A stretch of 64,000 nt of DNA, from contig OY970223.1 of the NCBI GenBank assembly GCA_963714015.1, positions 593,655 to 657,654 on the forward strand. The letters are read 5' to 3'. Positions 28,901 to 34,900 of this stretch are shown piece after piece. Position numbers: made by a program. Every line of letters starts with the position of its first letter. Position 1 is the first letter of the stretch. This DNA is from Vulcanimicrobiota bacterium (lineage in GTDB: Bacteria > Vulcanimicrobiota > Vulcanimicrobiia > Vulcanimicrobiales > Vulcanimicrobiaceae).

Positions 28901-31900
28901 GTTGTTGCTCTAGCGCCGGGCTAAGGAGAGACGCGGAAGGAGATCGTTTTCCCGATCAAACCCTCGAGCGCCGAGGCTTCCTGCGGCGTTGCTATGTACC
29001 GCCGTGTCGATCCGTCGGCCAAACGTACGGTGACGTGCGTGCCGGAAACGGCGGTCACCGTTGCAGTGCGCGGCGCGGCCACAGCCGGCTTCACGGCAGT
29101 ATTCCAGGAAAGGGTGATGCTCGCGCTGGGGTGAGCGGAGGGCGGCGGGTAGAGCGGCATACAATTTTCTTATCGCACCGCCGCGGATGCGCCAAGTGCT
29201 CAAAGGCCTAGTTGAAACGGGCTTTTCTGGTCCCCAAAATCGGATGGCAACTCGCGAGAAGGTGGCCGGAGTGAATTTGCATTCGAAATGATCTCTCACG
29301 TGGCGTACTAGTCGTTTCGCCTGCTCTGCCGCTTGTCGACGACGCGCTTGACGACTGCCATCGCGTTGAGCGCCTTGGGAAAGCCCGCGTATGGAATGAG
29401 GGTCATCACGGCTTCGACGATCTCGTCCTCGGTCAGGCCGACGTTGAAGGCGCCGTGCACGTGCGTCTCCAGTTGGCGATCGCACCCGCCCATCGTCGCA
29501 AGCGATGCGATCGCGATGAGTTCGCGGTGCTTCAGGTCACCGTCGCGCGCGTAGATTTCGCCGAACGCAAATTCGACCAAATACCGCGTGAAATCGGGGG
29601 CAAGGCCTTCATAAGCGGCGATGAGGTTGTCGGCAACTTTGTCGCCGTCGACTTTGCGCAGAAGCCTCTCGCCGCGTTCGTAGCGGTCGCTCACCGCTGC
29701 CGGCGCCACTTGACGCAGACGCAAGCCCAAAGGACGGTAACAGCAGCAAAAATCAAGGCAAGAATACCGCTCGCAAACGTCCGCGTCGCAACCCACATTG
29801 CGACGTAGATGATCGCGACGAGCGCGAACGCAATCGTTGCCCCAATGGCGTATCGGACCCGTAACGGGTTCTCGGGCATCATTCCGTCAGCGCCTCTTTG
29901 ACGATCCGCTCTTGCTCGACGGCGTGCGCGCCCGGATACCCTTCCGACGGGCTGGCGCGATACGGACGGCCGATGTAATCGATTTCGAGCGAGTCGCTGC
30001 GCCGCTCGAGCAGACGCCGTCGAACGTAAGCGCGCGCACCCATGTTCTTCGGTTCTTCCTGAACCCAGACGAGCTTCTTCAGCCTCGGATACGTCGCGAT
30101 GATGTCATTGATCTCGATGTACGGCAGCGGCGATAGCTGCTCGATTCTGACGATCGCGGTCTTGTTCGCTTTTGCGTACAGCTCGTGTCCGATTAAGTCG
30201 TAGTACAGCTTGCCCGAAACCAACAAAATACGCTGGATCGCCGCTTTGTCTTTGACGTTCGCATCGTCGATGACCGGATGGAACTTGCCTTTGGCGAGCT
30301 CGTCGAGCTGCGCCGCCGCGCCTTCTTGACGCAGCAACGACTTCGGCGTCATGACGACCAACGGAACCGGCTGCGGCATCGTGGCCTGCTGACGCAGCAA
30401 ATGGTAGTAATTTGCGGCGTTCGTCGGATTTGCGACGCGCAGATTTCCTTCGGCGGCAAGTTGCAAGAAGCGTTCCAGGCGCGCGCTCGAGTGTTCCGGC
30501 CCCATGCCTTCATAGCCGTGCGGGAGCAGCAGCGTCAGACGCGCAGTCTGGCCCCACTTCGCCTGACCGGCGACGATGAACTGGTCGATGATGATCTGCG
30601 CGCCGTTGTTGAAGTCGCCGAACTGCGCCTCCCACAACACGAGCGCTCTGGGCACGGAGGCGCTGTAACCGTATTCGAATCCCAAGCACGCATATTCCGA
30701 GAGCGGACTGTTGCGAATTTCGAATGATGCCTTTGCGTCGGGCAGATGCTGCATCGGCACGTACGAGCCGCCGGTCTTCGGATCGTGCAGCACCGCGTGC
30801 CGGTGGCTGAACGTTCCGCGTTCGGTGTCCTGGCCGGTAATTCGAATCGGCGCGCCGACCGAGAGCAGCGAGGCGAACGCGAGCGCTTCCGACATTCCCC
30901 AGTCGACGATACCCTTCTCGGCAATCAGTGCGCGGCGCCTATCGAATTGCGTTTGCAGCTTTTTGTTGATCGTGAAGCCGTCGGGTACCGAGACGAGCGC
31001 ATCGCTCCATGCCAGCAGCCGATCGCGTGAAATGCGTTCGACCGGAGCCGCTTCGAGCGGCGCTTTGATCTCGAGCTTGGCGAGCATGCCGGCGAGATCG
31101 CGGTGACCTTTTACGCCGCGGTGCGCTTCCTGCAGGCGTTCCGTTGCCTCGCCGACGAGTTGTTCGGCCTGCTCTTTGCTCAGCACGCCTTGGGCCACGA
31201 GCTTGTTCGCGAAGAGTTCGCGCGCGCTGGGATGCGACTTGATGCGATCGTACATCTCGGGCTGCGTGTACGCGGGCTCGTCCTGCTCGTTATGACCGAA
31301 CCGGCGGTAGCCGATGACGTCGATGAGCGCGTCGCGGCCGAACTTCCTGCGAAACTCAATCGCCAGCCGTGCCGCCCAAATGCACGCGTCGACGTCGTCG
31401 GCGTTGACGTGAATGATCGGCACGTCGAAGCCTTTGGCCAAGTCGGATGCGTACCGCGTCGAACGGCTGTCGCGGGGATCGGTCGTGAAGCCGACTTGAT
31501 TGTTCGCGATGATGTGAATCGTGCCGCCCGTGTCGTACCCTGGCAGCGACTGCAGGTTGAAGACTTCCGAGACGATCCCCTGACCGATGAAGGCCGCGTC
31601 GCCATGGATGAGAATCGGGGCGGCCTTCTTTTTGTCTTGCAGCGGGACCGGCACGGTATGATCGGTCTGCAGTGCGCGCGCGCTGCCTTCAACGACCGGA
31701 TCGACGGCTTCCAAGTGACTAGGGTTATTCGCCAGCGTTACGGCAATCGCGCGTCCGTCGAGCGCTCGGTATGTGCCGTGCGCGCCGTGGTGGTATTTTA
31801 CGTCGCCGGTTACGTCTTCGCCGCCGTGCACCTCGCCGCGCTCGTTCGCCGCCTCGAATTCCGCCAGAATTTCTTCGTACGGCAGGTTCACGACGTGCGC

Positions 31901-34900
31901 GATCGTCGCCAAACGGCCGCGGTGCGCCATGCCGAGCACTGCGTTGGATGCACCTTCCCGCGCGAGCATTTCAAGGATCTCTTCGAGCATCGGAACGACG
32001 ACGTCGAGCCCCTCACCCGAAAAAGTCTTCTGTCCGAGAAACGATTTGCGCAGATAGCGTTCGAACGTTTCGACGCGCGTAAGGCGACGCAGCAATTCTA
32101 TCTGCTGCTCGTTGCTCAAGCGGACTTTGTGTTTGCCCGACTCGATCGTATCGCGCAGCCATTCGCGCTGCTCGGTGTTCGCGATGTGCTCGACTTCATA
32201 GGCGATCGTGGAACTGTACGTGTCGCGAAGGCGAGGGAGCACATCGGCCAGGGTATCGCCGGGAACCTTCACGCGCAGCACGGACGCGGGAATCGCCGAC
32301 TGCAGCGCAGGCGTGAGGCCCCAGTTGCCCGGTTCCAAGGACGGATCGCCGATAGGCTGCGTCCCGAGCGGATCCAGCGTTGCGGCAAGGTGGCCGTGCG
32401 TGCGGTACGCGGCGACGATCGCCATACCGGCGGCGACGGCGCGCAGCATTTCATCCGAAGGCGCGGGCGCGGCGGCCTGTTCGGCAGAGATCTCCGCCGC
32501 TTGCGGTTCAGCTTGCGCCTGCGCGGCGAGCTGCAGCCCCAGCGAATTGAAGATCGCTTCGTAGAAACCGTCTTTGCCATGCAGCAGTTCGTCGACGCGC
32601 TTTAAGTATTCACCCGACTGCGCGCCTTGAATGACGCGGTGATCGTACGTCGAGGTCATCTGCATGATCTTGCCGATGCGCAGCGACCGAAGCGTCTGTT
32701 CGCCGGCATTGCCGAAACCAGCCGGATAGCCGATAGCGCCGGCCGCAATTATCGCTCCCTGTCCGGCCATGAGACGCGGAACGGAAGCGGCAGTACCGAT
32801 GCCGCCGGGGTTGGTCAGCGTGAACGATGCACCTTGCAGCTCGTCTGCGGTAAGTTTGTTGTCGCGCGCTTTTGCGACGAGTTCTTCGTATTTCGTGCGA
32901 AATCCGATGAAGTCGAGCGTGTCGGCGTTCTTGATCACGGGCACGACCAGAAAACGCGTACCGTCTTTGCGCTCGGCGTCCACGGCGAGTCCCAGATGAA
33001 TACCGGGTTCGACGCGCACCGGCCGGTCGCCGTCGCGGCGGAAGTGGTGCGTAATGAACGGCAATTCGTGCGCGGCGCGCACGAGCGCAAACGCAATGAC
33101 GTGCGTGAACGAAACCTTCTCCGAACGGCCGGCGTTTTTGAGCGAATTGACGAGTTCTTTGCGGCGAGCGTCCAGTACGTCGACCGGCAGCGTACGAAAA
33201 CTCGTCGCGGTCGGAATCGTCAGGCTCTGCTCCATGTAGCCCGCCAGCGCCGCTGCGGGGCCTTTGAGCGGCGTGACTTTCGTTTCAGGCGCGAGCGCAG
33301 GCAGCTGCGGTTGCGGCGCAGTCGCAGGCGTTGATGAAACAACGGGCAGCGAAGGCGCTTGCTGCAAGACGTCCGCGCGCACGATCAATCCGTCCGGGCC
33401 CGAGCCGCGAATGCGCGCCACGTCGATGCCCAGCTTCTTGGCAAGACGGCGGGCTTGCGCCGTCGCAATGGCCTGGCCGGTTCGCGAAGGCGCTTGCGCA
33501 ACTGCGGCGGCCGGAGTTGCAGGTGCTTTGGCGCCGTTGACCTTTGCGGAACCGGTTTGAGCGGTGGGCTGCGCGTTCGCGTCGATTTCGGCGAGCGGCG
33601 CGCCGACGGAGATCGTCGCGCCCTCCGCGGCAACGATCTTGAGGATAACGCCTGAAGCGGTGGCGGGGACTTCGACGTCGACTTTGTCGGTCGTTACGTT
33701 GACGATCGGATCGCCTTCGTTGACATAATCGCCTTCGCGTTTTTGCCACTCCACGATCGAGCCTTGGGTGACGGACTCGCCCATTTCGGGAAGCGTCACG
33801 GCAACGATGCGGGGATCGCGTTTTTCGGGGGCAGGCGAAGGCGGCGCGCTCTTTGCGCCGTTTCCGGATTTTATGGCGGCCGTGTCGATTTCAGCCAAAA
33901 CGGCTCCGACCGAAACCGTCTGCCCTTCGTTCGCGAGGATTTGCGTTACGATGCCGGACGCGCTTGCGGGAACCTCGACATCGACTTTATCCGTCGTAAC
34001 CTCGACCAGCGGATCGCCCTGCTCGATGTAGTCACCGACCCGCTTACGCCATTCGACGATAGAGCCTTCGGTGACCGACTCCCCCATCTCGGGGAGGGTG
34101 ACTTGAACCATCGTTTCAGGCACTGCGGCGACTCCGTACTTTCCCTAGCTTCTGCGCAAAACCGAACCAGGGGCTTTAACAGCGATCCGGCTTCCTCATC
34201 TTAGTCCAGGAGAGGGTTCCTTCCAATGACGATGCCATGCCAGATTTATGCTCTTAGCGTAATACTATGCCTAGGGGACGGGCTACCAGGCGTACGCAGG
34301 ATACCGAGTGAGCGGGGCCCGGCATGCTAAAATACCCCCATGGCACAAAAGGGTAAGGGCGGCGATCCGGCCGGCCAGAAGTACGCGAGCACATTCGAAT
34401 CGTTCGTGAACCGGACCGCGACGGCCCAGAAGGCCGATGTCGAAAATCTCGAAACCGAGACAGAAAAGAAGCCGCGTGTCAGACGCAAGCCGAAGCAACG
34501 GGCGAAGTGACACTCTTTAAGTGACTCATTTCCCGTCTTCATCACTCTGGACGCTACTAGTCACAGCCGTACTGCTACTCTTTTTCGGCTGGCGCGGAGT
34601 GACTGCGCCCACCGCTCTGATCCGAGGCGGGTTGGCCACGGAGCCAGCGGTAAAAACGGCGCGCCGAATGGGCTACGATGCTTGCTGCGGCACCGCCCTA
34701 CTGATCTTTGACATCGTAAGCGCCCTGTCACGGCAAGCGTTTTAGTTCGCCGTTCATTCCTTCGGCTACTGTAGTCAAGGATATAATATGCTCTATGTGT
34801 AATGAATAGCGCGGCATGGAACTGCAACAGCTGGAGTACTTTCGCGTCGTCGCGCGGATGGAGCACGTAACCCAGGCCGCCGAGGAACTGGGCATTACGC

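Follow-up and report, generated by a model that had tools for sequence, protein, structure and literature searches.

Introduction

The canonical 2-oxoglutarate dehydrogenase (ODH), composed of SucA, SucB and Lpd, performs the same textbook chemistry as that expected of the protein described here, and SucB shares with this protein the order lipoyl domain, peripheral-subunit (E3) binding domain (PSBD) and catalytic core. Association of a PSBD with E3 and of E2 cores in trimers are textbook pairs. In Corynebacterium glutamicum and Mycobacterium smegmatis, E2o and E1o are fused in a single protein (OdhA or KGD, PDB 8P5T and 8P5R), where Kgd begins with a hairpin (PF16078). An open question named in PMC10415282 is how two active sites that lie about 60 Å apart in OdhA are both served by lipoyl domains.

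A second type of fusion is found in Thermoleophilia. The sections of Bruch et al. (2020, bioRxiv 10.1101/2020.07.24.212647) on these organisms describe, from bioinformatics only, an "LB-PS-E2-E1 full fusion" with the same domain order as that reported below, i.e., two lipoyl domains and one E3-binding domain stand in front of E2o-E1o in place of PF16078, and propose that the full fusion needs no lipoyl donor in trans. These sections contain neither a protein tree nor a polarity or an experiment. Both the layout and the idea of self-sufficiency, which a first-pass annotation of the present locus also put forward, have been in print since 2020 and are not new.

Here, we describe such a fusion, encoded in a 64,000-nucleotide stretch of DNA from a Vulcanimicrobiota bacterium (the window, i.e., the whole stretch that was analyzed).

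Domain architecture of the fusion

The gene starts with GTG (with an alternative ATG at residue 5; the database version, P0002, has 1410 aa and starts at Met5) and defines the following features:

29879..34123, (-) strand: lipoyl-lipoyl-PSBD-E2o-E1o full fusion, whole gene, 1414 aa, one uninterrupted ORF
33887..34105, (-) strand: lipoyl domain 1, residues 7-79 (PF00364, lipoylation motif; beta-sandwich, pLDDT 86-96)
33986-33988, (-) strand: predicted lipoyl-accepting Lys46 of lipoyl domain 1 (motif)
33584..33799, (-) strand: lipoyl domain 2, about residues 109-180 (second Biotin_lipoyl stretch, motif, structure model)
33683-33685, (-) strand: predicted lipoyl-accepting Lys147 of lipoyl domain 2 (motif)
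33365..33454, (-) strand: PSBD, residues 224-253 (PF02817, 39 bits against a cut-off of 23.7)
32543..33286, (-) strand: Kgd/OdhA-type E2o succinyltransferase core, residues 280-527 (2-oxoacid_dh 280-515; motif alignment to 8p5t/8p5r)
32459..32542, (-) strand: E2o-E1o linker, residues 528-555, Ala/Gln/Glu-rich (pLDDT <50 at 539-553)
29882..32458, (-) strand: complete E1o, residues 556-1414 (E1_dh 716-1005, Transket_pyr 1073-1265, OxoGdeHyase_C 1272-1412)

The single reading frame, the places of the Pfam domains (including the second Biotin_lipoyl stretch) and the score of 1455 bits for NF008907 (cut-off 878) were all reproduced as first annotated. Six Pfam families are joined in one chain (PF00364, PF02817, PF00198, PF00676, PF02779 and PF16870), while a Pfam search of the protein did not detect the PF16078 hairpin. 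The score against the sucB profile TIGR01347 is 255 bits, i.e., below the cut-off of 378.65, and the alignment to M. smegmatis KGD in the PDB starts at residue 263 of the fusion and 107 of the chain, in agreement with the earlier observation that the N-terminal part has no counterpart in Kgd. Together, domains and motifs bear out the earlier assignment: the protein is a Kgd-type fusion that combines lipoyl, E3-binding, E2o and E1o parts and is self-contained.

The two lipoyl domains are 75% identical to each other. In a model of residues 1-620 (40-row alignment, pLDDT 85, pTM 0.52) the PSBD is composed of two helices (222-231 and 249-258), preceded by a low-confidence Ala/Pro-rich linker of ~40 residues, and the E2o core displays helices at 475-480 and 517-527; a single-sequence fold of residues 278-1414, with a mean pLDDT of 33, was left out of the structural reading. 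The E2o catalytic residues Thr437, His495 and Gln499 are found in alignment columns that are invariant or nearly so among homologues. The same is true of the E1 histidines, i.e., His734, His778, His944 and His1211 by comparison with the catalytic histidines of OdhA, of which His1211 was assigned by its motif rather than by the OdhA alignment of that stretch; the ThDP motif is located at 840-843. The lipoylation motif, an acidic residue plus Lys, was recovered in 357 of 360 fused lipoyl domains. Three lineages show conservation of the lipoyl lysines and the PSBD as well as of the E2 catalytic residues.

The fusion shares with OdhA and KGD the HRxxQG-type E2 site, the E1 histidines, the inserted OdhA-specific helix (296-302, here residues 475-481) and the equivalent of OdhA Phe340 (Phe520), the latter two in a gap-free motif alignment to 8p5t/8p5r. 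Unlike these enzymes, it lacks the N-terminal hairpin and has its own lipoyl arms and PSBD. The Arg298-Glu301 salt bridge of OdhA is not kept, and most of the residues with which OdhA contacts OdhI differ here (K484>I, Q488>R, E801>Q and D795>E; also R781>Q). The E1o part is 42-45% identical to free SucA. A promoter scan yielded 0 sites; terminator-like sites were seen, which are uninformative. An assembly chimera was ruled out, as the fusion is conserved in 119 further proteins and in 34 further loci extracted from the class.

Genomic background

A tblastn search of the genome identified one E1o locus and only three E2-core loci (the fusion gene and loci at 1.137 Mb and 1.503 Mb of the contig), which bears out the earlier count of two other E2 genes; no separate sucA or sucB was found in the genome. 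E3 and LipB/LipA are encoded away from the fusion gene, an lpdA-lipB-lipA cluster is present, and so is sucC. The lpdA carries a frameshift due to one inserted base, which may be an assembly error. A POR_N-family gene is located at contig 26100-26588.

The pyruvate dehydrogenase (PDH) is composed of proteobacterial-type AceE/AceF. The C-terminus of its E2p aligns gap-free to the cubic-core E2p of E. coli and Azotobacter, and lacks the Phe-containing insertion; an E2p of this type beside a full fusion fits the correlation given in the relevant part of Bruch et al. (10.1101/2020.07.24.212647). This E2p has two lipoyl domains of its own, ~27% identical to those of the fusion. Among three FHA proteins found in the genome (89.6% complete), none is GarA-like, as judged by eye from the N-terminal tail against the GarA layout.

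Distribution

All of the 120 best matches of a homologue search, one of which is the query protein itself, carry PF00364, PF02817 and PF00198, and 109 of them have a length of at least 1300 aa. The fusion had been described as general in Vulcanimicrobiota. This description holds for its own class, Vulcanimicrobiia, with a match in 92 of 92 other genomes, but not for the other classes of the phylum, where 58 genomes yielded free E1o in 17 and an arm-less Kgd in one. Similarly, two lipoyl domains are found in the present gene but are not a general trait of the class: among 35 extracted loci (the 30 best-scoring and five picked ones, i.e., not a random draw), 17 have two and 18 have one. The present type thus occurs with one or two lipoyl domains and in another phylum than the full fusion described for Thermoleophilia. 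A separate sucB was missing, as annotated; none of 61 class genomes has a protein above the TIGR01347 cut-off. A SucB-like E2 of one Vulcanimicrobiia family (f3; up to 355 bits) was rejected as sucB, being part of an E1alpha-E1beta-E2-lpd operon in all three loci fetched.

The class loci and fusions in other phyla also bear out that E2o-E1o fusions occur outside Actinobacteria. In Atlas data, with coarse taxa and few records, clusters of arm-bearing ("armed") fusions are commonest in Actinomycetota and hairpin fusions in Acidobacteriota; NCBI labels that may reflect mislabelled MAGs (Bifidobacterium breve, Bifidobacteriaceae, Chlamydiae, Cellulomonas and "Actinomycetes") were left out of the range evidence. 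Solirubrobacterales-type Thermoleophilia, Dormibacter and Vulcanimicrobiia all have the armed form, which they probably share through transfer. The dedicated E3s of family f3 and of one Thermoleophilia locus are 66-67% identical, and a test of transfer direction, with Thermoleophilia-type rows as one clade, did not establish a direction (p=0.055).

The nearest arm-less relatives, found in this analysis, are hairpin-E2-E1 fusions of Gemmatimonadales and Limnocylindria/Chloroflexia, which keep PF16078 and lack lipoyl domains and PSBD; one of these, P0124, is 52-59% identical to armed forms.

Phylogeny and origin of the arm

All trees are "quick" IQ-TREE searches, and the groups for the tree tests were named after inspection of the first trees. 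The fused E2 cores (52 of 52) form one clade with an SH-aLRT of 100, indicating that the present gene and OdhA/KGD are of one origin, and the Thermoleophilia full fusion falls in the same clade as the present one. In the E1o trees, the armed clade is nested inside hairpin-bearing Kgd forms through branches of 97-100, and an AU test rejected placement of all hairpin fusions on one side, i.e., a single armed-to-hairpin change (p=1.8e-87). A free search with the E2 core instead placed the armed forms at the base, and the hairpin forms made up a clade nested among them (SH-aLRT 85), with the root on a branch of length 2.99; however, holding the armed forms together improves the E2-core tree by 7.7 lnL. 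In the E1o data, two long-branch armed proteins, P0125 and P0128, are separate from the main armed clade, resulting in three changes on the free tree, while a single origin of armed forms including these two was not rejected (p=0.19). Free E1o sequences are nested among fusions in the E1o tree, and the E1 and E2 parts may therefore have recombined.

The mean identity of the fused lipoyl domains is 47% to E2b-type domains and 35% to those of SucB. At odds with this result, the PSBD is 47% identical to the E2p type and 38% to the E2b type. From the trees and the lipoyl-domain comparison, the arm was probably regained late from a DlaT/E2b-type E2 rather than kept from an ancestor.

Discussion

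We consider it likely that the fusion is the sole E1o and E2o of the cell, with its own carrier arms, an OdhA-like D3 hexamer and an arm regained after a hairpin-bearing Kgd stage. The OdhA/KGD motifs point to a homohexamer of 8,500 residues, composed of three E1o dimers and two E2o trimers; the 24-mer cube of canonical SucB is not expected, because the C-terminus of the E2 core is joined to E1o. Here, E1o would decarboxylate 2-oxoglutarate on ThDP and then succinylate a lipoyl group that the LipB/LipA of the genome would have attached to Lys46 or Lys147. The arm would then swing to the E2o site, yielding succinyl-CoA, and reach the PSBD-docked E3 for reoxidation. Such an OdhA-like hexamer would most likely need only E3, and the E2p of PDH should not be needed since the fusion has its own arms and a PSBD for E3. 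A GarA/OdhI brake would not act on the fusion.

It is improbable that the fusion nevertheless operates in a mixed complex, either exchanging lipoyl arms with the E2 of PDH or of the branched-chain complex, or lending its arms to other E1s. OdhA does operate in a mixed PDH/ODH supercomplex (as described in PMC10415282), and the genome has a single E3 gene of the over-cut-off type for three E2-type proteins. The fusion, however, lacks the N-terminal hairpin to which an important part in contacting E2 is ascribed, and the canonical C-terminus of E2p and its own, dissimilar lipoyl domains argue for separate complexes. Mycobacterial Kgd has side activities, i.e., decarboxylation to succinic semialdehyde and carboligation. 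A mainly non-oxidative role of this kind, with succinyl-CoA supplied by an oxoacid:ferredoxin oxidoreductase, for which the POR_N-family gene would be a candidate, is very improbable, as a pure decarboxylase would not need to conserve the lysines for lipoylation, the PSBD or the catalytic residues of E2.

As to history, the earlier annotation regarded the fusion as a state before domain loss, i.e., sucB and sucA would have been joined end-to-end, and Kgd/OdhA would derive from the full fusion, having lost its lipoyl domains and PSBD. The free E2-core tree is consistent with such a scenario, as are arm-less, hairpin-less fusions that group with an armed protein (P0136, P0141 and P0145), the existence of which shows that arm loss does happen. 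This ancestry is nonetheless unlikely given the long root branch of that tree, the better tree with armed forms held together, the E1o data and the similarity of the arm to E2b/DlaT-type lipoyl domains. Furthermore, loss alone cannot yield Kgd from an armed form because Kgd begins with the hairpin PF16078, of which our own HMM detected no remnant in front of E1o in 199 E2o-E1o linkers (best score, 2.4 bits). The trees instead suggest that the Kgd type arose by insertion of an E2 core into an E1o, downstream of its N-terminal hairpin; that in one soil-bacterial branch this hairpin was later replaced by the lipoyl and PSBD arm of a DlaT/E2b-type E2; and that the armed form then spread by probable transfer, accompanied in some lineages by an E3 gene of its own. 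According to the trees, the order of events would be the reverse of the intuitive one.

The known range of E2o-E1o fusions is now wider, covering several soil phyla. With some reserve, we favor the view that a Kgd-type enzyme recaptured a lipoyl/E3-docking arm from the kind of E2 that usually lends it lipoyl groups, resulting in a two-protein ODH that freed PDH from the mixed supercomplex. This ODH would have moved from one soil phylum to another, and in some lineages its E3 would have travelled with it as part of a cassette. If so, the recaptured-arm enzyme would comprise E3 and a single hexamer to which 6-12 arms are tethered. Because this natural arm-bearing OdhA would need only E3, arm number, use in cis or in trans and E3 docking could be tested with two purified proteins of a harmless soil bacterium, and the enzyme would offer a natural tool for comparing, on the scaffold of OdhA, lipoyl channelling in cis with that in trans.

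Architecture of the fusion protein

The fusion is encoded by 1414 codons in a single uninterrupted frame and is found in the window together with the following genes:

29879-34123 (-), E2o-E1o fusion (2-oxoglutarate dehydrogenase)
29308-29796 (-), presumably a carboxymuconolactone-decarboxylase-like ORF, directly downstream of the fusion
26770-28179 (-), near the fusion, which we take to be a cytochrome P450
23838-26298 (+), two genes, presumably diaminohexanoate dehydrogenase-like and KamA-type radical-SAM aminomutase-like

The last pair is lysine-fermentation-like, in an apparent aerobe. 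The GC content of the fusion gene (62%, compared to 61% for the genome) does not mark it as recently foreign.

Repeated ORF, Pfam and NCBIfam searches confirmed the one-frame fusion and its annotated domain positions, i.e., two lipoyl stretches, an E3_binding domain (PSBD), the E2 catalytic domain and three E1o domains, with a score of 1455 bits against NF008907 (cut-off 878). The Pfam scan gave no match to PF16078, the hairpin at the E1o N-terminus of Kgd and OdhA. Alignments to the top solved relatives, M. smegmatis KGD and C. glutamicum OdhA, begin at query residue 263-279. In the fold predicted for residues 1-620 (40-row alignment), both lipoyl domains form beta-sandwiches and the PSBD consists of two helices; these domains and the E2 core are connected by linkers of low confidence. 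In a structure ranking, two integrative E2 models came first, followed by OdhA/KGD chains as the first among crystal and cryo-EM structures.

Both lipoyl domains carry the expected acceptor lysine (K46 and K147), and the lipoylation motif is found in 357 of 360 fused lipoyl domains, which are mostly close kin and hence not independent. T437, H495 and Q499 of the E2 core, presumably catalytic as in the E2/OdhA literature, are invariant in alignments of 19 and of 40 sequences. PMC10415282 names four histidines in the E1o part of OdhA; these correspond to H734, H778 and H944 by alignment and to H1211 by motif. The same paper describes two hexamer-linked features, an inserted helix (296-302) and Phe340, which map to residues 475-481 and F520, respectively; the Arg298-Glu301 salt bridge of OdhA is not conserved and its OdhI-contact residues are mostly substituted.

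Partner enzymes and proposed working

The source genome holds one E1o and three E2-core loci, so that, as annotated, only two E2 genes exist besides the fusion. One is AceF, adjoining AceE, the C-terminus of which aligns to cubic-core E2p without insertion; the other lies behind E1alpha/E1beta genes and scores under the sucB cut-off. The search also found sucC. None of the three FHA proteins found has a GarA-like layout. Because the genome is 89.6% complete, absences are provisional. The E3 gene belongs to a cluster outside the window:

1367746-1370956 (contig), lpdA-lipB-lipA cluster (E3)

Its lpdA carries a one-base insertion near 1370450 that is absent from five of five relatives and is probably an assembly error.

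Several other loci were noted on this contig. The aceE-aceF pair (1136998-1141358) is a pyruvate dehydrogenase of proteobacterial type; family f3 instead carries an E1alpha/beta operon together with lpd-lipB-lipA, so that the type differs within the class. Two E1alpha-like genes stand in tandem before E1beta and the second E2 (1505430-1507546). A second Lpd-like flavoprotein (2783286-2784992) scores under the cut-off for E3, and at 26100-26588 lies an oxoacid:ferredoxin oxidoreductase gene of alpha type.

By analogy with OdhA, the protein would most likely form a hexamer with tethered lipoyl arms. The active sites of OdhA are reported to be 60 A apart (PMC10415282). The predicted fold places ~60 linker residues between lipoyl domain 2 and the E2 core, which by simple reckoning would span that distance. 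E3 would then be the sole component needed in trans.

Range of the fusion

In a survey of 151 genomes of the phylum, a strong match was found in all 92 other genomes of the class Vulcanimicrobiia (80/80, 2/2 and 10/10 in families f1, f2 and f3, including the unpublished G117), and all 35 loci extracted are armed fusions, i.e., with their own lipoyl and E3-binding domains, in one frame. The earlier statement that the architecture is general in Vulcanimicrobiota thus holds for the class but not for the phylum: the 58 genomes of other classes harbor a free E1o (17), a hairpin-type Kgd (1), a fragmented E1o (1) or weak E2-type matches or none, and SucB adjoins the free E1o in three of three loci fetched. 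Similarly, two lipoyl domains are found in the source gene and in 17 of the 35 class loci, whereas 18 have one. That a separate sucB is missing agrees with its absence above cut-off from all 61 class genomes searched (including the unpublished G117 and G287). The hairpin-type Kgd (L113, genome G082, contig C523) belongs to a distant group and is a separate acquisition.

In addition, the best 80 of at least 600 candidate named records, a selection rather than a census, were classified by N-terminus using our own HMMs.

N-terminus types among the best 80 candidates
Armed fusion, 37: Solirubrobacterales and other Thermoleophilia, Vulcanimicrobiia, one Dormibacter, some MAGs with doubtful labels
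Hairpin-E2-E1, 20: Gemmatimonadales, Limnocylindria, Chloroflexia, Blastocatellia, Microbacteriaceae
Free hairpin-E1, 15: Gaiellales, Longimicrobiales, others
Truncated or without recognised N-terminal domain, 8
Hairpin and arm together, none

As the first-pass annotation held, the fusion is therefore not confined to Actinobacteria. The class around a record titled Thermoleophilia has it in 27 of 81 genomes, where 25 match from the lipoyl domain onward and the other two likewise have lipoyl domains. The phylum around the Dormibacter record has it in 5 of 41; of two newly fetched fusions, one is armed and one hairpin-type. Loci titled Bifidobacterium breve (L043), Bifidobacteriaceae (L047), Chlamydiae (L102) and Cellulomonas (L105) hold fusions of soil-group type; L047 and L105 cluster with Thermoleophilia- or Chloroflexota-type rows, so that these titles may be wrong.

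Evolutionary history

All trees are quick searches, with groups named after first looks at the trees, among sequences other than those of M. smegmatis and C. glutamicum; the 68-row E1o set leaves out 10 fusion rows for size, and two further sets are subsets of 32 and 35 rows. In the E2-core tree, all 52 fused cores group to the exclusion of 23 free E2s, from which it follows that the fusion arose once.

The first-pass annotation regarded the armed form as the state before domain loss, from which Kgd was derived. Armed forms are indeed basal in the free E2-core tree, but this position depends on a root that sits on a branch of length 2.99, and an E2-core tree with the armed forms united is 7.7 lnL better (p-AU 0.655). 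In the E1o tree (~835 columns, rooted on free E1o) the order is hairpin Kgd, including a row labelled Microbacteriaceae, then Gemmatimonadales/Chloroflexota hairpin forms, then the armed clade, which is thus nested in hairpin forms; SH-aLRT values of the key branches are 97, 98, 100 and 96, and the order is similar in other E1o trees. A single armed/hairpin replacement, with all 14 hairpin fusions constrained to one side, is rejected by the E1o data (delta lnL 319, p-AU 1.8e-87); this test rules out one replacement, not several, each of which would imply that the hairpin was regained. For these sequences it is the E1o part, not the E2 core, that decides the order of events. We consider an armed ancestor improbable; the E1o trees suggest that the arm is a later regain and not an ancestral feature.

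Two armed rows on long branches lie outside the armed clade, and a single armed origin is not rejected (p=0.19). Three E2o-E1o fusions (P0136, P0141, P0145) lack both hairpin and arm and cluster with an armed protein; these are possibly true arm losses or truncated gene calls. Free E1o rows are nested among the fusions in the E1o trees; such free hairpin-E1o loci (L075, L080, L082, L088, L107) come from Gaiellales-type and Longimicrobiales genomes (G151-G155), where a Kgd-type E2 core was found in none of the five.

The fused lipoyl domains are closest to the E2b/DlaT type (47%, compared to 35% for SucB), while the PSBD is instead closer to E2p types. None of 199 E2-E1 linkers holds a hairpin remnant. 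Another E1o, P0159 (1091 aa), has a cNMP-binding domain (residues 132-213) between hairpin and catalytic core, i.e., this position tolerates insertions; P0159 is possibly a cNMP-regulated 2-oxoglutarate dehydrogenase.

Vulcanimicrobiia and Dormibacter cluster with a subset of Thermoleophilia-type rows; uniting the Thermoleophilia-type rows in one clade gives p=0.055, a test that leaves the direction of transfer unproven. A dedicated E3-like gene directly follows the fusion in three of the best-80 named loci and in two of two f3 loci (L057, L060, L108, L115, L116); it was not found in the source genome. Three dedicated E3s compared share 66-68% identity with each other but just 33-37% with the main lpd, which points to transfer of fusion and E3 as a cassette.

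The same architecture was described as "LB-PS-E2-E1" in three Thermoleophilia by Bruch et al. (bioRxiv 10.1101/2020.07.24.212647), the Fig. 5a table of which may already include some phyla listed here. A literature search, with most subscription papers outside its coverage, returned no paper that deals with the fusion in Vulcanimicrobiota or addresses its polarity. The annotated observation is confirmed, while its interpretation is only partly supported. The source-genome gene adds another member to a known architecture; what is new is its class-level range and the tree evidence for an arm that would have been regained rather than retained.
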